From assembly GCA_964619705.1 (NCBI GenBank), contig CAZUGF010000011.1, positions 1 through 60,764 of the forward strand: 60,764 nucleotides of DNA, in the 5' to 3' direction. The translations under genes and the position numbers were made by a program. This stretch comes from an uncultured Bifidobacteriaceae bacterium (GTDB lineage: Bacteria; Acidobacteriota; Vicinamibacteria; Vicinamibacterales; UBA2999). A model generated the notes under the pieces. The model was not told the origin of the DNA and did not search any database. It was given only the letters and a program-made list of their open reading frames with translations. Shown here piece by piece: positions 1 through 20,927 of this stretch (the first letter of the stretch is position 1; each line of letters begins with the position of its first letter).

Positions 1-2790
1 AAGCCCATACATTTCGTGATACGCGATCCACGAGTACTTCTTGCCGTATCGCTCCACCCGATTGGGCTCTGTTGAACGACTCAGACTCCTGCCGCCAATC
101 TCGAGGTCGACATCCTTGAAGCGAGCCTGCGTCCAGCCCAAATCAGCAACACGCGCAAGAACTTGGCGACGCAGTCGTCGATATGCGCGATGCTTCATGT
201 CATAGTTCGAGCGATTCTTCACGAGCGAGCCGAGGGTGTAGTTCTCGAAATCCATCCGGATCGCGCCCTCTGCATCCGTCATCCGCTGTCTTGAATAATC
301 GATTCCGAGAAAGGGATTGACGGTCTGTCGATCACGTGCCAATCGCCACTCGGCCAGACGGCCCTGAACGGCCCGCGAACGCCGCGCGGCCAATTCCACG
401 ACTCCCTGGAGATTGTCACGGATCAGGGCATGGGGCGTGCGAAGTCGCCCCGACGGCGCAGATGATTCCGCCATCAGGTATGACGCCGTTCGAGCCAGTT
501 GCCGCTGAAGAGCTTTCGCGTCGGGCACATTCCACTTTGACATCGCGACGCCATAGAACGCCGCGAGCAGGCGCTCGGTGATGTAAGCGTCATTGCTGGC
601 AAGGGTGGCACGTATCTGATCTGCCAATACACGAGGCTGCGACTCACCGAGCTTCACCAGAGCGCGGGTAGCCCTGTCTCGGAGTGGCACGTCAGTGCTC
701 GTCAGGACGAGCGAGAGTACCCGCGCCATTTCGGCGGCGACCTCCGCCGACAGCTCGATCGTCTCGTTCCGCTCAGTCCAACTCAGAATCCGCTCAACTG
801 AACCACTGCGATCTCGGACCCGGAGGAATTCCGTCCAGTAGAGGTCCCGCTCCACGAGCGACATGCCCATGAGAGCGTTCCAAATTCGTTTGGCTGCCCA
901 TGGATGGTTAGGCCGAACGGCTAGCGATAGCACGACTTCCAAAGTGCGCCATGACGTGTCGCCCCCCGCACGCCCATTCAGCAAATCCACGATGAGAGCG
1001 TCTGTTGTTTTTGAGAACGATGGTACTGTTCGCCATGGTAGCCCCCGGACAAAGGGGTCGAAATATCGCCGGAGATCCCCCCCGCCCTCTGGCAGGAAAT
1101 CGTACAACTCGCGGCCAGCCCGGCGATCCAATCGCTTGAGTCGCTCAGGGAACTCCACGATGAGTGCTTCGCGCCACCCACCTCTTCGAGGGTCTGGCTC
1201 CTCGTTGGCGAAGAGCCGACCAAGTGGCGCATCGATCTGAAATGCTGCCCGAAGGGCGCGTCTCGTTAAAGGACTCGGCAGATGTCGCTCAAGCAAATGA
1301 CGCGCAATCAGATGGTCAGAGAAGCGTTGATATGGCAACCTGATGACCGCTTGCCAGTCAGTCCCAGTCCACTGGCGATCCTCAAGCAGGACGCCGGCAG
1401 CTAGCATCTGATTCAGGACTTCGCGTCGTCGCGTGACGTTCCAGTGCGGAAGGCGCGGAGAGAGAAGTTGTAGGAGTTCCGGCTCCGTGGCCCACTCTCG
1501 TTCCTCGCGCACCATCAAAGCGCACACGCCGTCTTCATCTTTCAAGAAACGCCAACAGAACTTGCCTGGTAGATTGAGCCGATTCTGAAGGTCTGCACTC
1601 GCCGCGTCGACGAAACGCTCGAACACGAACGTCATCGACTTCTGGCCGGACGCGATGCCGGAGATGCCCTTCTTCTTGCTCTCGCGCGTGAGGTCCTTGA
1701 AGGCTTCGCAGATCAACTTCAGCGTCAACGGACGCGAGAACTCGTCTGCCAGCAGCGGCACTTCGGGCAGCGGCAGATCGTAGAAATCGAAGAAACTCTT
1801 CTGGGCGTCGAACTCTTCGCCTTCGAATCCGGGATGGACGAGAGATGGGAGCGTTTGCAGCTCGTCGCCGCTGAACATAAGTCGTTCAAATGGGCTTCGA
1901 CAGGTCAGCGCTACCCCCACCCATTGAAAGCGAGAAGCCGACCGAATCAGGGTCTTGCAGGCGCGAGACCACCCCTCGCGGTTGCCTTCATTGATTCCGT
2001 CCAGAATGATGAGCGTTCGAGTTCCCCTCGCTCGACCCAGCGCATTGAGACCAGATAACAGATCGACGAGCCTCGATTCGTCGAGCGACTGAATCGCGTC
2101 TCGGAGTGGCTGGCCGCCGGCGAAGTCCTTCGCCAAGAGCAATAAGGTGGGCAAGTTGTCGAGCAAGCGAGCCAGACTCGCATCGCACACGGAGTGTGTC
2201 TTTCCAGTGCCCCATTCTCCGACTAGCAGGAGGTGCCCACGCTCAAACGCGGCGGTCGCGGGCGCTTCCAAAAACTGCTCGACGCCTCGGAATACGGACC
2301 GCACCTCACGCAGAATCGAGGAGTTGCGGTCGGCCCGAGAACGCTCCGCTTCCGGTGCCTCGCGCGAGACGTCATGACTCTGAGGATTCGCCTGGTCGAG
2401 GCGCTGGACCACATCATGGACCGCGGCGATACTGATTCGAAGAGCCGCGATCGTTCGTGCGGCCTTTCGTGGTGGCAGCGTCGTTAGCCGTCGCAACAAG
2501 GCGACGAACCGCTCGATCGCCTCCGTCTCATTCGCTTCCGGTGCAGCCGAAAGATAAGCGAGGTCACGAAACCCTTTGGCGAAGCCTTGCGTCTGCTTCT
2601 CTCGTTCCGCCTTCCATCCCTGTGTGCCGGCCAGGGCCGCCAAAGCGCTGGCGACCGTCTCGATGACGAGATTTGGTGCACCCTGTGCGGCGTTCGGCGT
2701 GTACCGCGGGCCTGCGCTGCGCACAGACCGCCTCGTTTGACGCACAATCCGCGATAGAAGGTCTTCCGCAGGCCTCCTCGTTTGCTTCAT
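1..2790 (-). CDS. NACHT-like STAND P-loop NTPase, partial (C-terminus lies beyond window start; at least 930 aa)
   Basis: Absent from the ORF track because there is no stop inside the window. My manual minus-strand translation from ATG at 2790 stays open to position 1 (930 codons, in frame). Walker A GEWGTGKT (2197-2220), Walker B-like LIILDGINE, TCRSP (resembles NACHT TSRP) and PLTLKLI motifs, then HEAT/ARM-like helical repeats (PLRDRATRALVKLGESQP). Confidence 0.75.
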   Translation of the reverse strand, partial: MKQTRRPAEDLLSRIVRQTRRSVRSAGPRYTPNAAQGAPNLVIETVASALAALAGTQGWKAEREKQTQGFAKGFRDLAYLSAAPEANETEAIERFVALLRRLTTLPPRKAARTIAALRISIAAVHDVVQRLDQANPQSHDVSREAPEAERSRADRNSSILREVRSVFRGVEQFLEAPATAAFERGHLLLVGEWGTGKTHSVCDASLARLLDNLPTLLLLAKDFAGGQPLRDAIQSLDESRLVDLLSGLNALGRARGTRTLIILDGINEGNREGWSRACKTLIRSASRFQWVGVALTCRSPFERLMFSGDELQTLPSLVHPGFEGEEFDAQKSFFDFYDLPLPEVPLLADEFSRPLTLKLICEAFKDLTRESKKKGISGIASGQKSMTFVFERFVDAASADLQNRLNLPGKFCWRFLKDEDGVCALMVREEREWATEPELLQLLSPRLPHWNVTRRREVLNQMLAAGVLLEDRQWTGTDWQAVIRLPYQRFSDHLIARHLLERHLPSPLTRRALRAAFQIDAPLGRLFANEEPDPRRGGWREALIVEFPERLKRLDRRAGRELYDFLPEGGGDLRRYFDPFVRGLPWRTVPSFSKTTDALIVDLLNGRAGGDTSWRTLEVVLSLAVRPNHPWAAKRIWNALMGMSLVERDLYWTEFLRVRDRSGSVERILSWTERNETIELSAEVAAEMARVLSLVLTSTDVPLRDRATRALVKLGESQPRVLADQIRATLASNDAYITERLLAAFYGVAMSKWNVPDAKALQRQLARTASYLMAESSAPSGRLRTPHALIRDNLQGVVELAARRSRAVQGRLAEWRLARDRQTVNPFLGIDYSRQRMTDAEGAIRMDFENYTLGSLVKNRSNYDMKHRAYRRLRRQVLARVADLGWTQARFKDVDLEIGGRSLSRSTEPNRVERYGKKYSWIAYHEMYGL

Positions 2791-2818
2791 CGATTGGTAG
2801 AAGGCGTATGAAGGCGGC

Positions 2819-3157
2819 TCACGCCGCAACAACTGTGATTCGACCGCTCTTGCGCGAACGGGGTGTTTGACGGATCACGATCTCAACGTCTCGATCCAGC
2901 GCCGTTAACAAGTTCATTAGCCGTTCGACCGAGAACCCCGCGAGCTTGTAGTTGCGGAGTGCAGAGACCTTAGGCTGGGTCAACCCCAACACCGCCGCAG
3001 CTTCGGCCTGCGACAGTTTGCGCGATTCAAGCACCTGATTGAGTGCGTATGCCAAGCGAAGTCTTGCTTGCCGCTCGGCGGCGTCCAGGCATCCAAGGTC
3101 CACGAAGATGTTCTTCGTGCCACGGACGATCGTGTCATCACGGCTTTGCCTGGCCAT
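2819..3157 (-). CDS. XRE-family helix-turn-helix regulator (HigA/HTH_37-like antitoxin-type architecture)
   Basis: Track ORF 2819..3298. The conserved part starts at MARQSRDD (ATG 3157; alternative ATG 3172). It has NIFVDLG..DAAE, then LSQAEAAAVLGLTQPKVSALRNYKLAGFSVERLMNLL, a typical XRE HTH. It ends 29 nt upstream of the NTPase start. Confidence 0.8.
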   Translation of the reverse strand: MARQSRDDTIVRGTKNIFVDLGCLDAAERQARLRLAYALNQVLESRKLSQAEAAAVLGLTQPKVSALRNYKLAGFSVERLMNLLTALDRDVEIVIRQTPRSRKSGRITVVAA

Positions 3158-3259
3158 GGCTCTCCTTCGCATCTTCTTCAGTATTCCAGTTCTGGGATAT
3201 CCGCGCAACCGATTGTGTGCGCTGGACACGCCGGAATGGTCCCTGGACTTCGCTGCGTA

Positions 3260-3295
3260 GAAGTACTGCCACTTGTGGACAAGTGGCAGTACTTC
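3260..3295. promoter_or_regulatory. Perfect palindrome (17-bp arms, 2-bp spacer): candidate operator upstream of the XRE gene
   Basis: GAAGTACTGCCACTTGT-GG-ACAAGTGGCAGTACTTC read directly. It lies about 100 nt upstream of the XRE start. A 2-nt loop is too tight for a simple RNA hairpin, which favours a dimer-binding site. Confidence 0.45.
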
Positions 3296-3949
3296 CACAC
3301 ACGCCGGTTGGTGACGCCGGTCGAGCCGTGCGGCACCTTTCTCTTGACGGCCGCGGGCAACGGGCGTAGCCTTTTTCCCATCGTTCGACGGCGACTCAGT
3401 CGCCCTCCTCCATGCGGCCTCAAGCCCTTGGAGGGCTCTTCTCTCGTCGCCCTCAGGGCACGCGAGCGAGCACCAATCAATTCCGGCATCGGATCACTCG
3501 GCTCGAACGGTCTCGTTCGTCAGCATCGGCCCAAGGCCACCTGACCAGCAGGGACGGAGCACGAGAGAGCGCTCACCTTACGCGAGTTCGCCCTCAGGGC
3601 AGTCGCGGGCGGATTGGGCGCCGACCGAATCGACCGGAACCCCTAACGACAGAGGCACCACGCGCGGGCTCCTCCTCAGGAGAGCTCGCCCAAGCGTGCC
3701 GCGGGCGCCGGCGCATCGTGGTTACCACCTTGCGCCACGTCCCGCACTCGTCCGCGCCATCTGGCGCGGAGACTGGTCGTGCCCGCGATCAACGATCGCG
3801 ATTCGCACGCCTCAGGCTCGGCGGTCCGGGACGACGCTCAGCGCGTCATCGGCCGACCGGAGTTCCGCTCCGTTCTCAGGACGGAGCGGCCAGCCTCGAG
3901 TTGATTCATCAACAACAGTTTCATGGTTGCGAGTCAACGCGGGGTTATC

Positions 3950-4155
3950 ATGCGTGGACGAAAGCGATCGGGGCTCTGGCCGCCGGCGCGAACGCCGGAT
4001 GTTGTTTCGCACCACGACGACGCGCCGATTGATGCAGACGCGCAGACGGATGCCGCGCTCCTGGCGCTCGTTCGATTGCTTGCGCGGCAGGCAGCGCGCG
4101 AGCTCTTCGCTCAAACCGTGACCGAGTCGCATCGTTCCATCGACGAGGACCGCGA

Positions 4156-4159
<4 letters not shown>
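3950..4159 (+). CDS. Small hypothetical protein translationally coupled to the serine recombinase gene
   Basis: Track ORF 3923..4159 (ATG at 3923 or 3950). Its stop overlaps the recombinase start as ATGA (4156-4159). C-terminal helix motif LLALVRLLARQAARELF. No recognised domain. Confidence 0.35.
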
Positions 4160-5832
<1,673 letters not shown>

Positions 5833-5909
5833 ACAGGGAAAATCCGATTGTAGCACGGGACCCTGAATTCGCAAACCCTCGGCGTCCACGATGACCGGGA
5901 AAGGGGACT

Positions 5910-6491
5910 CTATCCCTTCCTGACGTACTCCAGCCCAATCACGCCGGTGGGGTAGGGCGTCGCCGACACCAGCGTGAACGCGCCGTGCGTGTCCTCGTCC
6001 CAGAGGCGCTTGCCGCGGCCGAGCGTCAGGGGATAGAGCAGCAGGTGCAGCTCATCGACCAGGCCGTGCGCGAGGAGCATGCGCACGAGCTGGCTGCTGC
6101 CATCCGTCAGGATCCGCCCGCCGGGCTCGGCCTTCAGCCTCCGCACGGCCTCCACCGGGTCGCTGCGAATGATCGTCGTGTTGCGCCACAGCGGCCGCTC
6201 CAGCGTCCGCGAGACGACGTATTTCTGTGGCGGGTTCATCATGTCGCCGAAGGGGTCACCCGGCGGCATCGGCTCGAACGCCTCGGCATGGATCTCGTAC
6301 GTCCGGCGGCCCAGCAGGAAAGTATCGACGCCCTGCATCACCCTCCCGAAGCTGGCGCCGATGTCGTCGTGCCAGTACGGCAGCGTCCAGCCGCCATGCT
6401 CGAAGCCGCCATCCCGATCCTCGTCCTTCCCTCCCGGCGCCTGGATGACGCCGTCCAACGACACGAACTCGGACACGACCAGTGTGCGCAT
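5910..6491 (-). CDS. Dihydrofolate reductase family protein (RibD C-terminal domain, YwjB/YyaP-like)
   Basis: MRTLVVSEFVSLDGVIQAPGG..., LLGRRTYE, LTDGSSQLV, DELHLLLYPLTLGRGKRLW: typical RibD_C family pattern. GAGGGAG Shine-Dalgarno upstream. Confidence 0.9.
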   Translation of the reverse strand: MRTLVVSEFVSLDGVIQAPGGKDEDRDGGFEHGGWTLPYWHDDIGASFGRVMQGVDTFLLGRRTYEIHAEAFEPMPPGDPFGDMMNPPQKYVVSRTLERPLWRNTTIIRSDPVEAVRRLKAEPGGRILTDGSSQLVRMLLAHGLVDELHLLLYPLTLGRGKRLWDEDTHGAFTLVSATPYPTGVIGLEYVRKG

Positions 6492-6607: not shown

Positions 6608-7186
6608 TCAGCGGTTGGTGCTTCCGGCTGAGGGTGGGGATGGCTCACGCACGGAGCCTGGTCCGTCGAGCCGGCGGTAGAACACGGTCGTGCTGCAGAG
6701 GCCGCCGGCCGGCATCAGCGCATAGCCGGGGATGTCGCCCACACGCACCCAGCCGAGCCGCGCGTAGAGGCGCGCCGCATCGCCATCGGTCACGGCATCG
6801 AGCACCAGGAGCGTCCTGCCGCAGGCACGCGCGGTGTCCTCCGCCGCGCGCATCAGCGCCTCGCCGAGCCCCTCACGCCGCCGGCGCCGGTGCACCAGCA
6901 TCTTCGCAAGGTCCGCGCGGTGCGGCTGGTTCTCGGGCTGCGCGAGGATCACCTGCACGGTGCCGCAGATGCCCTGCGCGTCCTCGGCCACCACCAGCGC
7001 GCGCTCGCCGGCTGCCACGCCGGACGCGACCCGGCGCCAGAAGTCCTCGGCCCGGGTGGGGGAGAGCGGCGCCATGAAGCTGACCGACGCCCCGCCGTCG
7101 ACGCAGTCCACCAGCAGCGCCGCGAGCTGCGCAACGGCCTCGTCGTCCACCGCGTGCAGCCGCCGGATCGTCCACGCGTCCGTCAT
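6608..7186 (-). CDS. GNAT family N-acetyltransferase
   Basis: Real start MTDAWTIRRL (ATG 7186) inside track ORF 6608..7396. Acetyl-CoA motif region LVHRRRRREGLGEALM, then ARLYARLGW. Confidence 0.85.
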   Translation of the reverse strand: MTDAWTIRRLHAVDDEAVAQLAALLVDCVDGGASVSFMAPLSPTRAEDFWRRVASGVAAGERALVVAEDAQGICGTVQVILAQPENQPHRADLAKMLVHRRRRREGLGEALMRAAEDTARACGRTLLVLDAVTDGDAARLYARLGWVRVGDIPGYALMPAGGLCSTTVFYRRLDGPGSVREPSPPSAGSTNR

Positions 7187-12618: not shown

Positions 12619-12880
12619 GGGGGAAGGTGCTGGGGAGGTGCTGGGGAGGTGCTGGGGAGGTTCGGGGAGGTTCGGGGAGGTGCTGGGGAGGTGCTGGGGA
12701 GGTTCGGGGAGGTTCGGGGAGGTTCAGCACGGTCCCAGCTTCCGGCACCTTCCGGCACCTTCCGGCACCTTCCGGACCTTCCCGCACCTCCCCGCACCTC
12801 CCCGCACCTCCCCGCACCTCCCCGCACCTTCCCGAACCTCCCCGAACCTCCCCGAACCTCCCAGAACCCTCCCCGAACCC
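12606..12880. repeat. Inverted array of tandem 10-11-bp repeats: G-rich units followed by their C-rich complements
   Basis: Left arm: about 10 units GGGGAGGTGCT / GGGGAGGTTC (12619-12724). Centre: CAGCACGGTCCCAGC. Right arm: TTCCGGCACC x3, TCCCCGCACC x4-5, TCCCCGAACC x3-5 (12741-12880). It begins inside the stop region of the preceding CDS. Confidence 0.95.
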
Positions 12881-13476: not shown

Positions 13477-14433
13477 ATGGATGCCGAGAGTCTCGATCGG
13501 ATGTGGCACCTCGTGCTGGGCGCCGCACGCTGGTCGGAGCGGCTGAGTCAGTCCGCGGAGCCCGCCGCGTTCACCCAGGACGACGATGGCGAACTGCAGC
13601 CGCCGAGCGGGGATGCGGCGGCCGTGCTCGACTGGGATCCGGCCACCGGCTGGACGACAAGGTTCGCGGAGGACGATCCGCGCCGCGCGTTCGCGGATCT
13701 CTACCTGCCGCTCGCCGGCGCCACCACGCAGCGGCCGCTGACGATCGGACACCTGGGCCAGAGCCTCGACGGCTTCATCGCCACGCGCGCGGGTGAGTCG
13801 CGCTACGTGACCGGCGGCGAGAACATCGTCCACCTCCACCGCCTGCGCGCGCTGAGCGATGCCGTCGTCGTCGGTGCGGGGACCGTGGCCGCGGACGATC
13901 CGCAGCTCACGACACGCCTGGTCCGCGGACCGAACCCCCTGCGCGTCGTCGTCGATCCGGGCCGGCGCCTCGATGACCGCCACCGCATCCTGAGGGACAC
14001 GGACGCCGACACGCTCTACATGTGCTCCCGATCGCTGATGCGTCCCGGCGAAGCGCGCTTCGGCCGCGCCCTCATCGTCGGGCTGGAGGATCATCCCGAG
14101 GGCCCGGGCGACATCAACGCGGCGGCTGTCATGGCCGCGCTGCGGGCGCGCGGGTGCCATCGCGTGTTCGTGGAAGGCGGCGGCGTCACCGTGTCCGCGT
14201 TCCTGGAGGCGCGGCTCCTCGATCGGCTGCACGTGGCCATCGCGCCGCTGCTCATCGGCGACGGCCGTCCGGCGATCCGCCTGGCCACGCGCGACGTCCT
14301 CGGGGAGTGCCCGCGTCCCGCCTATCGCGTGTTCCGCATGGGCGGGGACGTGCTCTTCGATTGCGACCTGACCGCCGCCCAGGCGCCGGCCGGCGACGTC
14401 GATGGCCACGCGCCGGTCCAGCGCGTCATCTGA
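13477..14433 (+). CDS. RibD C-terminal-domain reductase family protein with an N-terminal extension of about 80 aa
   Basis: GHLGQSLDGFIATRAGESRYVTG, LHRLRALSDAVVVGAGTVAADDPQLT, VFVEGGGVTVSAFL, LHVAIAPLLIGDG: pyrimidine reductase / DHFR-like pattern. TATAAT at 13460-13465, just upstream. Confidence 0.85.
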   Translation: MDAESLDRMWHLVLGAARWSERLSQSAEPAAFTQDDDGELQPPSGDAAAVLDWDPATGWTTRFAEDDPRRAFADLYLPLAGATTQRPLTIGHLGQSLDGFIATRAGESRYVTGGENIVHLHRLRALSDAVVVGAGTVAADDPQLTTRLVRGPNPLRVVVDPGRRLDDRHRILRDTDADTLYMCSRSLMRPGEARFGRALIVGLEDHPEGPGDINAAAVMAALRARGCHRVFVEGGGVTVSAFLEARLLDRLHVAIAPLLIGDGRPAIRLATRDVLGECPRPAYRVFRMGGDVLFDCDLTAAQAPAGDVDGHAPVQRVI

Positions 14434-15334
14434 CGGGCGCGCCCGGCGGCGACGCGGCAATGTCGGTGTGCCCGACGACGAGCGTCGAGCGGCCGTCCTC
14501 GATGTGCGTCGTGCGCCGCCGTCCCCACGCGCGGACGCGCGCGTCCTGTTCCGGGGCGATGGCGGCAGCGGCCTCAATCCAGCCGCCGACGAGCGCCGCC
14601 TGCAGCGTCGAGTGGCGCGCGTTCAGCACCCAGTCGGACGGTGCGCTCCACACCGCGTAGCCGGCAGCGGCCAGACACTGCAGGGCCCGCGGCGCGGCCT
14701 CCGGTCCCATGGCCGTCCCGAGCCCCTTGTCCGTCTGCTGGTGCCGGTTGACGAGCGTCCGGACCAGCTCGTCGTCCGGATCCTCGGGCGTGCACTGCAC
14801 GCGCCCGTCGTAGTTGAGCGCAAAGAGCACGTGCGCCCCGTCGCGGCGGCACTGCGCGGCCACGGCCTCGAACCACTCGGCGGAGACCAGGTCGAGCAGG
14901 GCGGATGCCGTGACCAGGTGATGACCATCCACGAGATCATCGGCCGCGCCGGTCAGGCCCAGGTGGCGCACGGACGTGGACAGGCGCCAGTGCAGCCCGT
15001 CCCCGTGGATGTCGATGCCGGGACCGGTCCGGTCAGCCGTGCGCGTGACCGAGAGCGCGCGGGATGCGGCCCATGCGTGCAGACGGCCGGGCAGGGCGTC
15101 GAGCAGGCCGGCATCGTGGTCGACGAGACGCCAGGCCTGGCGAGGCGCGCCGAGGCGCTCGGCCAGGTAGCGCAGGTTGGCGCCGGTCCCGGCGCCGAGA
15201 TCGAGCACGCGCAGGGGCGAGGATGCGGGCGCGTGGGTTGTCAGCGCGCGTGCGAGACTGCCGGTGAGGCTTGTCGATCGCGCCGCCTCGTCCACCGGTT
15301 CGCGCAGGCTCAGCCAGTCAGCGCTGAAGGTCAT
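14426..15334 (-). CDS. Class I SAM-dependent methyltransferase
   Basis: Start MTFSADWLSLREP (ATG 15334). SAM motif I VLDLGAGTGAN. Its 5' end overlaps the glycosyltransferase stop by 17 nt, and its 3' end overlaps the convergent reductase gene by 8 nt. Confidence 0.8.
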   Translation of the reverse strand: MTFSADWLSLREPVDEAARSTSLTGSLARALTTHAPASSPLRVLDLGAGTGANLRYLAERLGAPRQAWRLVDHDAGLLDALPGRLHAWAASRALSVTRTADRTGPGIDIHGDGLHWRLSTSVRHLGLTGAADDLVDGHHLVTASALLDLVSAEWFEAVAAQCRRDGAHVLFALNYDGRVQCTPEDPDDELVRTLVNRHQQTDKGLGTAMGPEAAPRALQCLAAAGYAVWSAPSDWVLNARHSTLQAALVGGWIEAAAAIAPEQDARVRAWGRRRTTHIEDGRSTLVVGHTDIAASPPGAPVR

Positions 15335-16382
15335 CGGCGCCAATCCGCTGGAGGACGCCGTCCAGGGCCGCGGCCTGCGTGTCCCAGTCCGGGAGCCGTC
15401 CGCGCATCTCCCGTGCGCCGCGGGCCAGACGCTCGCGCGCCGATCCATCCGTGATGACGAGCGACAACGCGTCGGCGAGCACGCCCACGCGTCCCGGCGG
15501 CACCATCAGCCCGGCGACATCGCTGAGGATGCCCGGGATGGCGCCGACCGGCGTGCTGACCACCGGCAGCCCGCGCGCGACCGCTTCCGCCACGGCCATC
15601 CCGTAGCCCTCGTACCGTGTGGGGAGGACGAAGACGTCCGCCTTGTCGTAGCAGGCGGCCAGCGCGTCCTCCCGCGCTTCGCCGGCGAGCGTCACGCGGT
15701 GATCGAGGCCCCAGGTGCGGAGGAGCTGCCGCTGGCGTTCCACGAACACGGGGTCGCGCGTGAGGCTGCCGACGCACGTCAGGTGCCACGAGAGCCCCGT
15801 GAGCGTGGACAGCGCGCGGAAGAGCGTGTCGTGTCCCTTGCGGGGCGTCATCGTGGCCACGGAGAGCAGCGCCGGCTCGGTGCCGTCCGTTCCGGTGGCC
15901 AGCGGCGCGGGGTCGGTCCCGGGCTCGATCGCCACGATGCGTTCGGGGGCCACGCCGTAGTCCGCCAGGGAGGCGGCCGTCACCGGGCTGGTCACGATGA
16001 TGGCGCGTGCGACGGCGAGCGCCCGCCGCTCGCTGTCCGCGAGACGCGTGGCCTTGATCGAGGGGAGTCCCGTCTCGGCCGCGAGTGGATGGTGGACGAG
16101 GGCGACGAGACGCAGCCGCGGCGCTTCGCGCGCAACCTCTTCCGGCATGCCGCCGTACGCCAGGCCGTCGACCAGCACGAGGCCGCCGTCGGGGATGCCG
16201 GCCATGATGGCTGCCGCCTCTTCCCGGGCGCGGACGGTGGGGAAGGGGAAGCTGTCGTCCAGTTCTCGGATGGAGACGGTCCACCCCCGCGCGCGCAGAC
16301 CGGCTGCCATGCGGCGGTCGTAGGCGTAGCCGCCTGTCAGCGTGTCGAGGCGGCCCGGGACGAGCAGCACGAGCGAGGTCAT
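15318..16382 (-). CDS. GT-B fold glycosyltransferase (GT4-like)
   Basis: Start MTSLVLLVPGRLDTLTGGY (ATG 16382). E-x7-E motif EGYGMAVAEAVARGLPVV. RKGHDTL region. Confidence 0.85.
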   Translation of the reverse strand: MTSLVLLVPGRLDTLTGGYAYDRRMAAGLRARGWTVSIRELDDSFPFPTVRAREEAAAIMAGIPDGGLVLVDGLAYGGMPEEVAREAPRLRLVALVHHPLAAETGLPSIKATRLADSERRALAVARAIIVTSPVTAASLADYGVAPERIVAIEPGTDPAPLATGTDGTEPALLSVATMTPRKGHDTLFRALSTLTGLSWHLTCVGSLTRDPVFVERQRQLLRTWGLDHRVTLAGEAREDALAACYDKADVFVLPTRYEGYGMAVAEAVARGLPVVSTPVGAIPGILSDVAGLMVPPGRVGVLADALSLVITDGSARERLARGAREMRGRLPDWDTQAAALDGVLQRIGADDLQR

Positions 16383-16407
16383 CGCGCGGTTTTCGCTTTC
16401 TCGCGTC

Positions 16408-16806
16408 CTAGACGCGGTTCTCGTACGAGGCGGATGCCACGTGCGACTCGTGCAGCGTGACGCGCAGGCTCTCGACGGCGTAGCCGCCAGGGCCGAGCCG
16501 GTCCTGCCTGATGGCCGCCACCATGCGATCGAAGATCTCGCGTGCGATGGCCTCGGTGGTGGAGTTCCGCCCGGCAAACGCGGGTTCGTCGTCGAGGTTC
16601 CGGTAGCTGAGATCCGCGAGGACGGCGCGCAGCGCATCGGTGGCCTTGCCGATGTCCACGACAATGCCGTCCTCGTCGAGGTCCGGCCGGCGGAGCTCGA
16701 GATCGACCACGTAGGTGGCGCCGTGCAGGCGCTGGGCGGGCCCGAAGACGTCGCCGCGGAAGCTGTGGGCGATCATGATGTGGTCACGGACGGTCACGGT
16801 GTACAT
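16408..16806 (-). CDS. 6-pyruvoyl-tetrahydropterin synthase / QueD family (COG0720) protein, atypical active site
   Basis: 132 aa. IAHSF..(x)..[15 protein letters not shown] aligns by eye to E. coli QueD AAHRL..KCGRLHGHSFMVRLEI. VVDIG and LHES segments are also conserved. Confidence 0.85.
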
Positions 16807-16857
16807 GGGGAACGGGTCTCCCGCGCCGCAGGGGGGCGGCGCGTGCTGGTTGATGCC

Positions 16858-17832
16858 TCAGTAGCGTATCCGGTGACAGAGCGCGGCGGAAGACGGTTTT
16901 GCGAGGGACGCCATCACCGCCGGCAGGTCGTCGAAGGGGCTCTCCCCGGAGATCAGGACGTCCAGCTCGTCGTGGACGAGCAGCGAGAGCGCCAGCGCCA
17001 TGCGCCGCCGCGTGTCCCATCGGCGCCGCTGCACCGGCGACACCGTCCCGACCTGTGAGGACTGCAGGCGGAGTCTGCGGGCGTGGAACGCCCGGCCGAG
17101 CGGCAGGGCCACCTCTCGGTCGCCATACCAACTGAGCTCGGTGATCGTCGCCTCGTCCCCGGCAACGTCGAACGCGAGCGCGAGGCCTTCCTGCGACGCG
17201 CTGGCGTGAATGACGATGTCGGCGTCCGGTGCGACGCGGCCGGGAGGGACGAAGGCGACGCCCAACGCCCGGGCCGCGGCCTCGCGGGCCGGGTTGACGT
17301 CCACCAGTTCCACCGCGCAGCCGGGCATGCGCCCCGCCAGCCACGCGCAGAGACAGCCGACGGCGCCGCCGCCGATCACGACGACCCGGTCGCCCACGTG
17401 GACGTCCGCGTCCCAGACGGCGTTGACGGCCGTCTCCAGGTTGGCGGCCAGCACGGCACGGCCCGCCGGGACGGCGTCCGGAACGAGGGCGGCGGAGGTT
17501 GCGGGCACGACATAGCGGGTCTGGTGTGGATGGAGCACGAACACCGTGCGGCCAACCAGGCCCGGCGGTCCTTCCTCGACGTCGCCGACGCTGGCGTAGC
17601 CGTACTTGACCGGGGCGGGGAAGTCCCCCTGCTGGAAGGGCGCGCGCATGCGCGCGTGCTCGCTGTCGGGCACGCGGCCCGTGAAGACAAGCGACTCGGT
17701 GCCGCGGCTGACGCCGCTGAAGCGGGTGCGGATCAGGACGTCCCCGCTGCCGGGCGCCGCGAGGGACTCGTCCCGAATCTCGCCGTGTCCCGGCGCGGCA
17801 ATCCAGAACGCACGGGCGCCATGATCGAGCAT
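16858..17832 (-). CDS. Zinc-type medium-chain dehydrogenase/reductase (MDR) family protein
   Basis: Start MLDHGARAFW (ATG 17832) inside track ORF 16858..18315. GVSRGTE, Rossmann VIGGGAVGCLCAWLA, GVAFV. Confidence 0.85.
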   Translation of the reverse strand: MLDHGARAFWIAAPGHGEIRDESLAAPGSGDVLIRTRFSGVSRGTESLVFTGRVPDSEHARMRAPFQQGDFPAPVKYGYASVGDVEEGPPGLVGRTVFVLHPHQTRYVVPATSAALVPDAVPAGRAVLAANLETAVNAVWDADVHVGDRVVVIGGGAVGCLCAWLAGRMPGCAVELVDVNPAREAAARALGVAFVPPGRVAPDADIVIHASASQEGLALAFDVAGDEATITELSWYGDREVALPLGRAFHARRLRLQSSQVGTVSPVQRRRWDTRRRMALALSLLVHDELDVLISGESPFDDLPAVMASLAKPSSAALCHRIRY

Positions 17833-18597
17833 CCGTTCATTCTGGTGCCTCCACCGCCACGTTACAATCCCGTCAGGGTGCAGGCGCGGAATCGGGAAGC
17901 CGTCGTGACAGGGGTGGCGGCGCTCGCGGGCACCGTGGCGCTGGCCGCTGCCGTGCGCGGGCCGCTCGCGCTCGGTGACGCCTATGTCCCGACGGCCGCG
18001 GCGGGCCTGGCCGTCGTGCTGGCCGTGATGCTCGCCGGCATCGGCTCCCATCCCCAGGCCCGATTCGGCGCGGCGAACCGCGTGACGCTCGGCCGTGCGG
18101 CCCTCGTGTCGCTCCTGGCTGCCGCGATCGCGCAGCAGCCCTCGCCGGCTCTCGGGGCGGCCATTGCGGCCACCTCGCTGGTGGCCGCGCTGCTCGACGG
18201 CGTCGATGGATGGCTCGCGCGGCGTTCGGGGACCGCCAGCCGGTTCGGCGCCCGATTCGACATGGAGATCGACGCGCTCCTCATCCTGGTGCTGTCCGTG
18301 CTGGTGTGGCGGCACGGTCGCGCGGGGATGTGGATCCTCCTGGCGGGACTCCTGCGCTACCTGTTCGTCGCCGCCGGGTGGCTGCTTCCGTGGATGCGGA
18401 AGCCGCTGCCGCCGAGCGTCAGGCGACAGGCGATCTGCGTGGTGCAGATTGGCGGTCTCATCCTGGCGATGGCGCCGTTCGTGCCGCGCGAGACGGGCGT
18501 GGCGGCCGCGGCCATCTCGCTGGCCGCGCTGGCGGGTTCCTTTGCGGTGGATACGGCGTGGCTGGCCCGCTCAGACCGAGGAGAGCAGGTGGCCTAG
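17821..18597 (+). CDS. CDP-alcohol phosphatidyltransferase family membrane protein
   Basis: Signature D-G-x2-A-R-x8-G-x3-D-x3-D is present as DGWLARRSGTASRFGARFDMEID. Multiple TM helices. Start is uncertain: the ATG at 17821 would overlap the divergent MDR start by 12 nt. Confidence 0.8.
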   Translation: MIEHPFILVPPPPRYNPVRVQARNREAVVTGVAALAGTVALAAAVRGPLALGDAYVPTAAAGLAVVLAVMLAGIGSHPQARFGAANRVTLGRAALVSLLAAAIAQQPSPALGAAIAATSLVAALLDGVDGWLARRSGTASRFGARFDMEIDALLILVLSVLVWRHGRAGMWILLAGLLRYLFVAAGWLLPWMRKPLPPSVRRQAICVVQIGGLILAMAPFVPRETGVAAAAISLAALAGSFAVDTAWLARSDRGEQVA

Positions 18598-19215
18598 CTT
18601 GGCCTTCTTGGTGGCCATGTACTGGCGCGTGGTGTCCGAGACGGGCATCTCGATCGGGAGCAGTTCGCTGACGAGCAGGCCGTGGCGCTCGACGCCGGCG
18701 CGCTTGCGCGGGTTGTTGGTCAGCAGGCGCATCGAGCGCACGCCGAGGTCCGACAGGATGTGGACGGCCGGCCCGTACTCGCGGAGGTCCGCGTCGAAGC
18801 CGAGCCGCTCGTTGGCTTCCACGGTGTCGAAGCCCTGCTCCTGGAGCGCGTAGGCGCGAATCTTGTTGGCGAGGCCGATGCCGCGGCCTTCCTGGTTCAG
18901 GTACACGATGATGCCGCGTCCCTCGTCGGCCACGCGGGCCATGGCGGTGTGCAGCTGTGCGCCGCAGTCGCACCGGGCCGAGTGGAAGACGTCGCCGGTG
19001 AGGCACGAGGAGTGAATCCGGACCAGCACCTCGGTGCCGTCGCCGACCTCGCCGAGCACGAGGGCGACGTGCGTCTGGCCGTCAGATTCCTGCTCGTAGA
19101 CGTGGATCCGGAAGTCACCGAGGTCCGCAGGCAGGTGGGCCGAGGCAACCCGGCGGACCGGGGGGCCGCCCAATGCGACGCGCACGCGGGAACGAAGTCG
19201 ATCGAAGACAGACAA
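18571..19215 (-). CDS. ribA: GTP cyclohydrolase II
   Basis: Zinc site CLTGDVFHSARCDCG, YLNQEGRGIGLANKIRAYALQ, LRDYG-like LREYG, MRLLTNNPRK. Convergent 27-nt overlap with the phosphatidyltransferase gene. Confidence 0.9.
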   Translation of the reverse strand: MSVFDRLRSRVRVALGGPPVRRVASAHLPADLGDFRIHVYEQESDGQTHVALVLGEVGDGTEVLVRIHSSCLTGDVFHSARCDCGAQLHTAMARVADEGRGIIVYLNQEGRGIGLANKIRAYALQEQGFDTVEANERLGFDADLREYGPAVHILSDLGVRSMRLLTNNPRKRAGVERHGLLVSELLPIEMPVSDTTRQYMATKKAKLGHLLSSV

Positions 19216-19238
19216 CCTGACTGTAAGCGTACTCCATA

Positions 19239-20927
19239 GTGCACGGCACCGTGCAGGTGAGTTACTGTCATGTCGTGCCTTCGTGGAAGCTGCCGGTCCG
19301 CGTCGCTGCGGCGGCCCTGGCCCTCGTCCTCCTCAATTTCTCGCTCACTTTCGGCAACACCTGGCCCACGCCGACCGTCACGTGGCGCAACGAGCTGTCG
19401 GTCGAGCTGGCCGTGCTCGTCCTGATCCTCGCCCTGGCGCATCACCGCGGGCGCGCCTCGCGGTGGCTGCTGGGCGGGATCGCGGCGGTCTGGTCCCTGC
19501 TCGTGGCGGGACACTACGTGGACGTCACCGCGTCCGCGCTGTTCGGGCGCGACATCAACCTGTACTGGGACCTGCGCTACGTGCCGGACGTCTTCGCGCT
19601 CATGGCGCGCGTGGCGCCGACGTGGCTCGTCGCCAGCCTCGGCATCGGGGCCGTCGTGGCGGCGGCGCTCGTCTACATCACCACACGGTGGGCCATCGGC
19701 CGCGTCAGCACCCTCGTCGCCCGGCCGCAGCCTCGACGCGTGGCCGCCGGCATCGCGGTGGCGGCGGTCCTGCTCTTCGCGGGGCTGCGCCTCACGGGGC
19801 AGGCCCAGCCGGCCGTCTACGGGATCCCGGTGACCGAGACGTACGCGAAGCAGGTCTGGCTGGCGGCACGCGCCATCGGCGGCGGGATCGCGCTGCCGGC
19901 CAGCCCCTCGATGGAGTCGGACCTCGAGGCGGCGCGCGGGACCGACGTGATGCTCGTCTTCCTCGAGTCCTACGGCGCGATCACGTACGACCGTCCCGCA
20001 TTTGCCGAGGCGCTGGCGGAGAGCCGCGCGGACCTCGCGGCCGCCGTGGCCGAGACGGGCCGGCAGGTCGTGTCGGCGTTCGTGGAGTCGCCCACCTTCG
20101 GCGGATCCTCCTGGCTGGCGCACATCAGCCTGATGTCGGGCATCGAGGTGCGGGAGCCGGACACGAACGCGCTCCTGATGACCGCGCGCCGGGACACGCT
20201 GGTGACCACGTTCTCGCGCGCGGGGTACCGTACGCTCGCCCTGATGCCGGGCCTCACCAAGCGCTGGCCCGAGGGCGTGTTCTACGGGTTCGACGAGATC
20301 TACGGCGGCGAGCAGCTCGGCTACAAGGGGCCGCCGTTCGGGTGGTTTGCCACGCCGGACCAGTTCACGCTGGCGCGGCTCGATACGATCGCGCCGCCGG
20401 AACCCGGGGCCTCGCGCTTTGTCTTCTTCCCGACGATCAGCACGCACACGCCGTTTCGCCCGACGCCGCCCTACCAGCCGGACTGGGCGCGCGTGCTCAC
20501 GGACCACCCGTACGACGAGGAGGATCTCCAGCGGTCGCTCGCGCAGGAGGTGGACTGGCTGAACATGGGGCCCGCCTACGTCGATGCGATCGCTTACGCC
20601 CATCACTCGCTGGCCGGGTACCTGCGCGCCATCGGCGACCGCGATGTGATCCTCATCGTCATCGGCGATCACCAGCCGCCGTCGCTCGTGACAGGGGAAG
20701 GCGCCCCCTGGGACGTCCCCGTGCACATCATCGCGAGCCGTGAGGCGGTGCTGGATCGGCTGCGGGCGCACGGGTTCCGGTCCGGGCTCGGGCCGGTGCG
20801 GCCGCACCTCGGCCGCATGCACACGCTCCTGCCAATGCTGCTGGAGGCCTTCGGCGGAGACACGGACGCCTCACCGGACGGCGCGCTGCGGCCGGCGGCG
20901 GATCAGGTGTCGAGCTCGAAGCGGTAG
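19239..20927 (+). CDS. Membrane-anchored sulfatase / alkaline-phosphatase superfamily transferase (LtaS/OpgB/EptA-like architecture)
   Basis: Five or so N-terminal TM helices, then a soluble domain with VFLESYG, SPTFGGSSWLAHISLMSG and IGDHQPP (sulfatase-fold metal and nucleophile regions). GTG start at 19239; alternative GTG at 19275. Confidence 0.8.
   Translation: MHGTVQVSYCHVVPSWKLPVRVAAAALALVLLNFSLTFGNTWPTPTVTWRNELSVELAVLVLILALAHHRGRASRWLLGGIAAVWSLLVAGHYVDVTASALFGRDINLYWDLRYVPDVFALMARVAPTWLVASLGIGAVVAAALVYITTRWAIGRVSTLVARPQPRRVAAGIAVAAVLLFAGLRLTGQAQPAVYGIPVTETYAKQVWLAARAIGGGIALPASPSMESDLEAARGTDVMLVFLESYGAITYDRPAFAEALAESRADLAAAVAETGRQVVSAFVESPTFGGSSWLAHISLMSGIEVREPDTNALLMTARRDTLVTTFSRAGYRTLALMPGLTKRWPEGVFYGFDEIYGGEQLGYKGPPFGWFATPDQFTLARLDTIAPPEPGASRFVFFPTISTHTPFRPTPPYQPDWARVLTDHPYDEEDLQRSLAQEVDWLNMGPAYVDAIAYAHHSLAGYLRAIGDRDVILIVIGDHQPPSLVTGEGAPWDVPVHIIASREAVLDRLRAHGFRSGLGPVRPHLGRMHTLLPMLLEAFGGDTDASPDGALRPAADQVSSSKR

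Follow-up and report, generated by a model that had tools for sequence, protein, structure and literature searches.

We analysed a cluster of eight genes at positions 13477-20927 of a 60,764-nt stretch of contig CAZUGF010000011.1 (assembly GCA_964619705.1), hereafter called the window, which has a G+C content of ~70% and its nearest relatives among the Vicinamibacterales (Acidobacteriota). The cluster begins with a RibD_C reductase gene on the plus strand (13477-14433; Pfam RibD_C, E 8e-37), followed on the minus strand by genes for a class I S-adenosylmethionine-dependent methyltransferase of the small-molecule type (14426-15334; recognised by the motif VLDLGAGTGAN and by its AlphaFold2 (AF2) fold), a retaining glycosyltransferase of family 4 (GT4; 15318-16382; Pfam Glyco_trans_1_4, E 3e-27), a SCO6650-type tunnelling-fold (T-fold) protein homologous to PTPS and QueD (16408-16806; Pfam PTPS, E 4e-24) and a medium-chain dehydrogenase/reductase (MDR) of the polyol-dehydrogenase kind that lacks the catalytic zinc cysteine (16858-17832; weak match to ADH_zinc_N). 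The remaining three genes encode a CDP-alcohol phosphatidyltransferase of a divergent subfamily (17821-18597, plus strand; Pfam CDP-OH_P_transf, E 8e-15), a monofunctional canonical GTP cyclohydrolase II (GCH II; 18571-19215, minus strand; Pfam GTP_cyclohydro2, E 1e-69) and an LtaS/EptA-like membrane phospho-head-group transferase (19239-20927, plus strand; Pfam Sulfatase, E 8e-10).

The list of open reading frames (ORFs) bore out the coordinates and strands of all eight genes given in the original prediction, with Pfam or NCBIfam profile matches for six of them, and the motifs that it had named (VLDLGAGTGAN, the E-x7-E motif, the CDP-alcohol motif and the GCH II zinc site) were all visible in the translations. 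Its methyltransferase and MDR dehydrogenase calls stood in part: the former agrees with the fold and with motif I, but its Pfam matches stay under the gathering score, and the latter has kept the Rossmann GxGxxG motif but falls under the gathering score of ADH_zinc_N (21 versus 31.8) and has lost the catalytic zinc cysteine. The annotated start codons of the MDR and phosphatidyltransferase genes overlap head-to-head at 17821-17832, within ATGATCGAGCAT, leaving no room for an intergenic promoter; the true start of one gene or both may lie downstream, or the promoters may lie inside the neighbouring gene. The LtaS-like gene may likewise have an alternative in-frame GTG start ~36 nt downstream.

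Conservation of the gene cluster

With the T-fold protein as seed, a scan covering one genome per species revealed at least 570 loci encoding a relative with 60-73% identity, distributed over Acidobacteriota, Gemmatimonadota, Myxococcota, Actinomycetota (the actinomycetes Micromonospora, Actinoplanes, Streptomyces and Pseudonocardia) and Alpha-, Beta- and Gammaproteobacteria. The best 80 of these loci were analysed by tblastn and all-against-all ORF clustering, and the phosphatidyltransferase served as a reciprocal seed that contributed 80 further loci, giving 160 loci in all. In the T-fold-seeded set the T-fold gene and an adjoining MDR gene were each recovered in 79/80 loci and GT4 in 77/80, followed by the methyltransferase (57/80; collinear with GT4 in at least 57), RibD_C (56/80), the phosphatidyltransferase (52/80), the LtaS-like protein (41/80) and GCH II (37/80). 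The conserved order places the phosphatidyltransferase gene divergently upstream of a collinear MDR / T-fold / GT4 / methyltransferase series, and from the opposite direction the T-fold and MDR genes were present in 53-56 of the 80 phosphatidyltransferase-seeded loci. All eight families lie within 7.3-14 kb in 22 of the 160 loci, and seven families occur together in 61. The Micromonospora clusters carry a more diverged RibD_C copy directly after GCH II; among the NCBIfam models, that of the archaeal diaminopyrimidine reductase fits this copy best.

GCH II, RibD_C, PTPS-like, CDP-OH_P_transf and GT4 genes travel together across many unrelated taxa, and the lack of conserved synteny that the original prediction had named as refuting it was decisively not borne out. 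More than 100 loci, spread over six or more phyla, hold the same grouping of families. Coincidence is excluded by the breadth of taxa that share the cluster. The cluster genes belong together and the two membrane enzymes act together, and it is very probable that all eight genes form one functional unit.

GTP-processing enzymes

The GCH II of the window exceeded every curated cut-off that was applied (Pfam 233 versus 23 bits; PRK00393 247 versus 148; TIGR00505 228.6 versus 205.85) and contains both the zinc cysteine triad (SSC...RCDC) and, within KIRAYALQ, the tyrosine equivalent to Tyr105 of the E. coli enzyme. A tyrosine at this position separates full GCH II from variants that form a formylated product (FAPy). 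Orthologues with 61-72% identity occupy the same position in other Vicinamibacterales clusters. At least four types of GCH II were distinguished among the clusters as a whole, namely the short canonical type found in the window, a type with a long N-terminus, an actinobacterial type and a Streptomyces type in which Met (or Leu or His) replaces the Tyr105-position tyrosine. That distinct GCH II lineages have been recruited repeatedly speaks for a genuine requirement of the pathway for the product of this enzyme. Several of the types neighbour a creatininase-family amidohydrolase, among them the long form with its N-terminal extension of ~200 aa, and the amidohydrolase of the Streptomyces cluster weakly resembles ArfB, the formamide deformylase of archaea.

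The GCH II ORFs of 400-510 aa (L041 13221-14459, L014 12841-14178, L036 15220-16569, L057 967-2181 and L026 5976-7514) begin with a region of ~190-330 aa without a Pfam match, which could be a real new domain or could result from an ORF that was called too long in high-GC DNA. The possibility that the long enzymes are RibBA fusions was ruled out, their N-termini having no DHBP synthase domain.

The RibD_C protein is a stand-alone reductase with no deaminase domain, preceded by a poorly conserved N-terminal extension of ~85 aa, and its DDPxLT and EGG substrate/cofactor motifs are conserved. Its best PDB matches were the archaeal-type 2,5-diamino-6-ribosylamino-pyrimidinone 5'-phosphate reductases 6P8C (6e-22) and 2AZN (1e-21), with bacterial RibD at 1e-16. 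Scores below all three equivalog cut-offs (TIGR00227 122.8 versus 150; TIGR01508 101.7 versus 186; TIGR00326 104 versus 156) identify it as a member of a divergent subfamily.

T-fold protein, dehydrogenase, glycosyltransferase and methyltransferase

The T-fold protein matched PDB entry 3D7J ('Uncharacterized protein SCO6650') with an E-value of 1.6e-48 and 63% identity over 130 residues, and scored 41.5 against a cut-off of 89.25 for the QueD equivalog. In its orthologues (n=79) the zinc motif HGH has become HGA, the catalytic cysteine is missing and RNLD replaces the Asp-His pair. The subfamily has invariant motifs of its own, among them LHESH, whose glutamate lies at the position that anchors a 2-amino-4-oxo-pyrimidine ring. 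Judged from these residues, the protein is homologous to PTPS and QueD but lacks the catalytic set of PTPS. A review of COG0720 describes further PTPS subfamilies of unclear function (PMC5041015). A search for fusions of the T-fold protein returned one candidate, a T-fold/GT4 protein (P0318) that may be a gene-call artefact. Four proteins of 375-855 aa in the representative protein library (P0242, P0244, P0250 and P0283) each contain three tandem SCO6650-like T-fold domains.

The best NCBIfam match of the MDR was BchC (4e-12), and its PDB matches, to idonate, butanediol, sorbitol and threonine dehydrogenases, were weak. Its orthologues (n=79) have GVSRGTE in place of GxCxxD and KYGY in place of the other zinc-ligand motif.

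The E-x7-E motif of the GT4 protein reads EGYGMAVAE and is conserved among orthologues. Its nearest PDB relatives are sucrose-phosphate synthase (6KIH, 2e-19), MshA (5e-11), BshA and PimB, enzymes that for the most part transfer sugars to small polyol or sugar phosphates. The methyltransferase was modelled with a mean predicted local distance difference test score (pLDDT) of 95.4 as a class I methyltransferase fold, and Foldseek aligned it with class I small-molecule methyltransferases (best E 3e-11).

Membrane enzymes

The phosphatidyltransferase contains the full D-G-x2-A-R-x8-G-x3-D-x3-D motif, which reads DGWLARRSGTASRFGARFDMEID (DGwlARrsgtasrfGarfDmeiD) and is conserved in 52 orthologues, and its Pfam score of 55.9 is well above the cut-off of 22. 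It falls under all NCBIfam equivalog cut-offs for the family (PgsA, PssA, PIPS, Pcs and Cls), the best being pgsA with 34.3 versus 109.1. Sequence searches of the PDB returned no match for the phosphatidyltransferase and weak or no relatives for the LtaS-like protein.

The AF2 model of the LtaS-like protein (pLDDT 87.6) consists of helices in residues 18-185 and a catalytic domain of the alkaline-phosphatase fold from about residue 236, for which the top Foldseek matches were LtaP/LtaS, PbgA, MCR-1/EptC and GacH, at 12-17% sequence identity. In 43 sequences four residues never vary, namely E243, S291, D477 and H478. They form a putative counterpart of the metal (Mn) and nucleophile set of LtaS, Glu255/Thr300/Asp475/His476, and occupy the expected secondary-structure positions in the model; the nucleophile position is Ser, not Thr. 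Loop charges fit a predicted topology of about five N-terminal transmembrane helices with the N-terminus inside and the C-terminus outside, so placing the catalytic domain on the outside of the membrane.

In six of the 120 best LtaS-like homologues, a CDP-OH_P_transf domain at the N-terminus and a Sulfatase domain at the C-terminus are joined in one polypeptide. One of these fused genes (locus L161) is divergent to an MDR / T-fold / GT4 / methyltransferase series, with FkbM and other methyltransferase genes nearby.

Accessory genes and an importer variant

Four further gene families recur at the loci, encoding an LPG_synthase_TM flippase-like protein (~43 loci), an FkbM methyltransferase (~43 loci), YceI (~22 loci) and cytochrome b561 (~10 loci); none of the four was found in the window. 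Three of these families, those of the flippase-like protein, YceI and cytochrome b561, suggest functions connected with membrane lipids and redox chemistry.

In Devosia, Roseovarius, Paracoccus, Sulfitobacter and a metagenome-assembled genome (MAG) of the Rhodobacterales we identified a variant of the cluster (L113 9156-17499; also L110, L126, L128, L132 and L134) that contains an importer. Its gene order is cytochrome b561 (where present) / phosphatidyltransferase / LtaS-like / flippase-like / NMT1-type binding protein / ATP-binding cassette (ABC) ATPase / permease / GT4, and the GCH II, RibD_C, MDR, T-fold and methyltransferase genes are all missing within 10 kb. The sole PDB relatives of the binding protein were 4NMY and ThiY (3IX1), with modest E-values of 4e-12 and 3e-8. 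ThiY is a formylaminopyrimidine-binding protein, and the importer may replace the synthesis of a pyrimidine-type head-group precursor in these bacteria.

Relationship to SCO6648-SCO6655 and to characterised pathways

The cluster is the orthologue of SCO6648-SCO6655 of Streptomyces coelicolor. In two Streptomyces loci (L078 and L079) the order is phosphatidyltransferase / MDR / T-fold / GT4 / methyltransferase / flippase-like / creatininase-like / GCH II, which fits the numbering from 6648 to 6655. SCO6655 is a GCH II homologue that has reportedly been assayed and stops at the formylated product, FAPy. SCO6650 is said to have neither zinc nor PTPS activity while keeping a pterin-type binding site, and reportedly no pathway was assigned to either protein. 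Compared with the Streptomyces loci, the window has the canonical Tyr-type GCH II, which needs no deformylase, and adds the RibD_C and LtaS-like genes but has no flippase-like gene. SCO6652, the methyltransferase by position, appears among the genes with strong induction in late mycelium (PMC3610822). The statement in the original prediction that no characterised product was known to its author was partly upheld: we found no description of the cluster or its product in the full-text literature searched, outside which most subscription journals lie, but the cluster was already known in part as SCO6648-SCO6655 and the structure of SCO6650 had been deposited as 3D7J.

The cluster resembles the first riboflavin/F420 steps of archaea (ArfA/ArfB/ArfC) in that GTP would be converted to a diaminopyrimidine, in some clusters through a formylated intermediate that a deformylase of the creatininase family would process, after which a stand-alone reductase closest to the archaeal enzymes would act. 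Unlike the archaeal route it has no downstream deaminase, lumazine synthase or FO synthase, and has glycosyltransferase, methyltransferase, T-fold, MDR and lipid enzymes instead. The expectation that it differs from the riboflavin, F420, folate, queuosine and toxoflavin gene sets, and that no rib, cof or fol genes lie alongside, agreed with our check of the eight genes and the five flanking ones, among which RibD deaminase, RibH, RibE, RibB, CofG/H, FolE/B/K, QueC/E and ToxC/D were all absent.

With PgsA and LtaS, EptA/MCR-1, OpgB and GacH the cluster shares the pairing of a phosphatidyltransferase with a membrane-anchored transferase of the alkaline-phosphatase fold that has, putatively in the cluster, a Glu / Ser(Thr) / Asp / His site, and many cluster loci include a flippase-like partner, as do the systems for lipoteichoic acid (LTA) and head-group transfer. 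It differs from these systems in its 12-17% identity, the Ser at the nucleophile position, the occurrence of fusions and a chemistry that would be derived from GTP rather than from glycerol or ethanolamine. A further likeness is to the entry steps of phosphatidylinositol, its mannosides and mycothiol (PgsA1, PimA and MshA), where a polyol phosphate is placed on CDP-diacylglycerol and GT4 enzymes glycosylate; the GT4 of the cluster matches MshA and PimB, but the cluster has no inositol-phosphate synthase, its polyol would be a ribityl or pterin side chain, and the equivalog cut-offs were missed. Toxoflavin is a GCH II-derived, methylated compound. As in the vicine/convicine and toxoflavin (ToxABCDE) pathways, a dedicated GCH II paralogue would feed a pyrimidine-derived product that is glycosylated (vicine) or methylated (toxoflavin), but no ToxC- or ToxD-type genes were seen in the cluster, and the T-fold, MDR and phospholipid enzymes are extra. 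We know of no characterised pathway that joins GCH II chemistry to a CDP-alcohol phosphatidyltransferase and LtaS-type head-group transfer, and the cluster is a widespread orphan pathway, conserved but lacking a characterised equivalent. Plant vicine exemplifies a pyrimidine glucoside fed by GCH II (bioRxiv 10.1101/2020.02.26.966523).

Proposed pathway and alternative explanations

The model that best accounts for the cluster as a whole, to which we assign a probability of roughly one half, is a soluble GTP-processing module that feeds a membrane module. GCH II would first open GTP to give 2,5-diamino-6-ribosylamino-4(3H)-pyrimidinone 5'-phosphate, the established activity of its family, and the archaeal-type RibD_C enzyme would then reduce the ribosyl group to ribityl. 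There being no deaminase, the 2-amino-4-oxo ('pterin-type') ring would be kept. As a speculative best guess for the third step, the MDR might re-oxidise C2' to an Amadori-type ketone and the T-fold protein, through its ring-binding glutamate, might promote closure onto the 5-amino group, yielding a 6-substituted 7,8-dihydropterin that resembles neopterin phosphate; we regard this pterin ring closure as doubtful. The MshA/SPS-like GT4 would add a sugar and the methyltransferase would methylate the product. On the cytoplasmic face the phosphatidyltransferase would couple the head group to CDP-diacylglycerol, the resulting lipid would be exposed by the flippase-like protein or by the membrane domain of the LtaS-like protein, and on the outer face the LtaS-like enzyme would transfer the phospho-head group to an envelope acceptor, polymerise it or release it.

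We rate it about as likely as not that the product derived from GTP ends up as the head group of a phospholipid. The gene linkage was observed directly. The tie between GTP chemistry and phospholipid machinery that the original prediction had drawn is strengthened by the fusions, the putative LtaS-type site, the accessory genes and the importer variant, whereas the nature of the head group, like the chemistry that follows the GCH II step, we still infer. A more elaborate version is put forward tentatively: the cluster may define a new class of bacterial lipid or envelope component, in which an aminopyrimidine or pterin glycoside derived from GTP is built in the cytoplasm as a head group on CDP-diacylglycerol, flipped and passed on, and serves as a periplasmic or membrane redox cofactor, the MDR and T-fold proteins providing a GTP cyclohydrolase I-independent route to pterins. 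The role as a redox-active cofactor in the membrane or periplasm is proposed because of the recurrent cytochrome b561 and YceI neighbours.

Several points weigh against the two-module model. The loci compared were the best-scoring 80 per seed and do not constitute a random sample. Neither a RibD_C nor an LtaS-like gene lies near the cluster in the Streptomyces loci L078 and L079, and no GCH II or RibD_C was called within 10 kb of the fusion locus L161; these gaps indicate a modular gene set rather than a fixed one. In ~15 loci, some of them visibly split clusters, the membrane module, often accompanied by FkbM, has no soluble module within 10 kb; it could serve other head groups. None of our analyses identified an intermediate past the GCH II step, there is no known product, and the ring-closure role of the MDR and T-fold proteins is speculative and a matter of chemical reasoning. 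No specific substrate class emerged from the Foldseek search with the methyltransferase. The ThiY-like label of the importer binding protein reflects modest E-values (4e-12 and 3e-8), and the NMT1 family also binds ligands other than pyrimidines.

In another explanation, the product is a soluble pyrimidine or pterin glycoside acting as a cofactor, pigment or redox metabolite (compare biopterin glucoside, solfapterin and vicine), and the phosphatidyltransferase and LtaS-like protein have a separate envelope function and merely ride along or are co-regulated. The nearest relatives of the GT4 enzyme (SPS, MshA and BshA) act on small soluble acceptors, vicine is itself a GCH II-derived pyrimidine glucoside in plants, the membrane module stands alone in the ~15 loci just mentioned, and the Streptomyces loci have no LtaS-like gene. 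A passenger role is difficult to reconcile, however, with a divergent arrangement of the phosphatidyltransferase gene and the MDR operon that is conserved across six phyla, with the fused phosphatidyltransferase/LtaS-like gene in the same cluster setting, with the retention of GT4 beside the membrane genes in the importer variant, or with the phosphatidyltransferase and flippase-like genes that are still part of the Streptomyces cluster, and we consider a purely soluble product rather unlikely. Less probable again is an LTA-like system that builds an envelope polymer of ribityl-aminopyrimidine phosphate, with GT4 making a glycolipid anchor, the phosphatidyltransferase a donor lipid and the LtaS-like enzyme polymerising or transferring. 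LtaS and LtaP were the top Foldseek matches, and GT4, the flippase-like LPG_synthase_TM protein, the LtaS-like protein and the phosphatidyltransferase parallel YpfP, LtaA, LtaS and PgsA, but the GT4 enzyme is closer to small-molecule glycosyltransferases than to glycolipid synthases, there is no sign of polymerisation, and LTA is not known in diderm bacteria, which make up most of the hosts.

An alternative primary route to riboflavin, F420 or folate-type cofactors with unrelated neighbours would account for GCH II, the optional ArfB-like amidohydrolase and the archaeal-type reductase, which mirror the first archaeal riboflavin/F420 steps. We rejected this route as highly improbable: neither the cluster nor its flanks encode a deaminase, a lumazine or riboflavin synthase, a DHBP synthase domain or CofG/H, the T-fold protein lacks the catalytic residues with which it could act as PTPS or QueD or replace FolB, and no flavin mononucleotide (FMN) riboswitch was found at 11-24 kb of the window. 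The distribution of the cluster is also patchy, and glycosyltransferase, methyltransferase and lipid genes accompany it. The alternating strands, with which no single operon is possible, could suggest a chance adjacency of unrelated genes, an idea that is refuted by the grouping of the same families across phyla and by the fusion of two of them, and to which we attach a negligible probability.

If the two-module model is correct, the cluster would represent a new class of head group for bacterial lipids or envelope polymers, in a pathway that soil and aquatic bacteria from at least six phyla have in common, and might account for the arrival of cofactors of the pterin or pyrimidine type in the periplasm. 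A function would also be assigned to the long-orphan proteins SCO6650 and SCO6655, and many annotations as '6-carboxytetrahydropterin synthase' or 'PTPS' would be corrected (E <= 1e-10 for each of the 8,000 candidates scored). Genetically tractable carriers of the cluster include S. coelicolor, Variovorax, Rhizobium and Micromonospora.

Flanking genes and repeats

The five genes that flank the cluster encode a Ser/Thr kinase, a Big_2 protein, an OmpR-type regulator and its histidine kinase, and an outer-membrane barrel. Regulation of the cluster by the adjacent OmpR/histidine kinase pair, as had been suggested, found no support in the comparison, such a regulator lying within 20 kb in just 16 of the 160 loci and at variable positions. 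No Rfam family was found at 11-24 kb of the window, and hence no FMN riboswitch is present there.

Two of the loci with a cluster of the acidobacterial type (L005 and L092; T-fold identity 64-73%) are labelled as Bifidobacteriaceae or Bifidobacterium MAGs and are probably mis-binned. Positions 1-6000 of the window have a G+C content of 59-63%, compared with ~70% elsewhere, and may represent foreign DNA or a segment set apart in some other way. Just upstream of the cluster, at 12621-12723, lies a tandem array of 9.7 copies of GGGGAGGTGCT, followed at 12739-12879 by a second array of 12 copies of GCACCTCCCC/CCGAACCTCC that is the reverse complement of the first; jointly the arrays in 12621-12879 form an imperfect inverted repeat of ~100 bp that could fold into a long hairpin.

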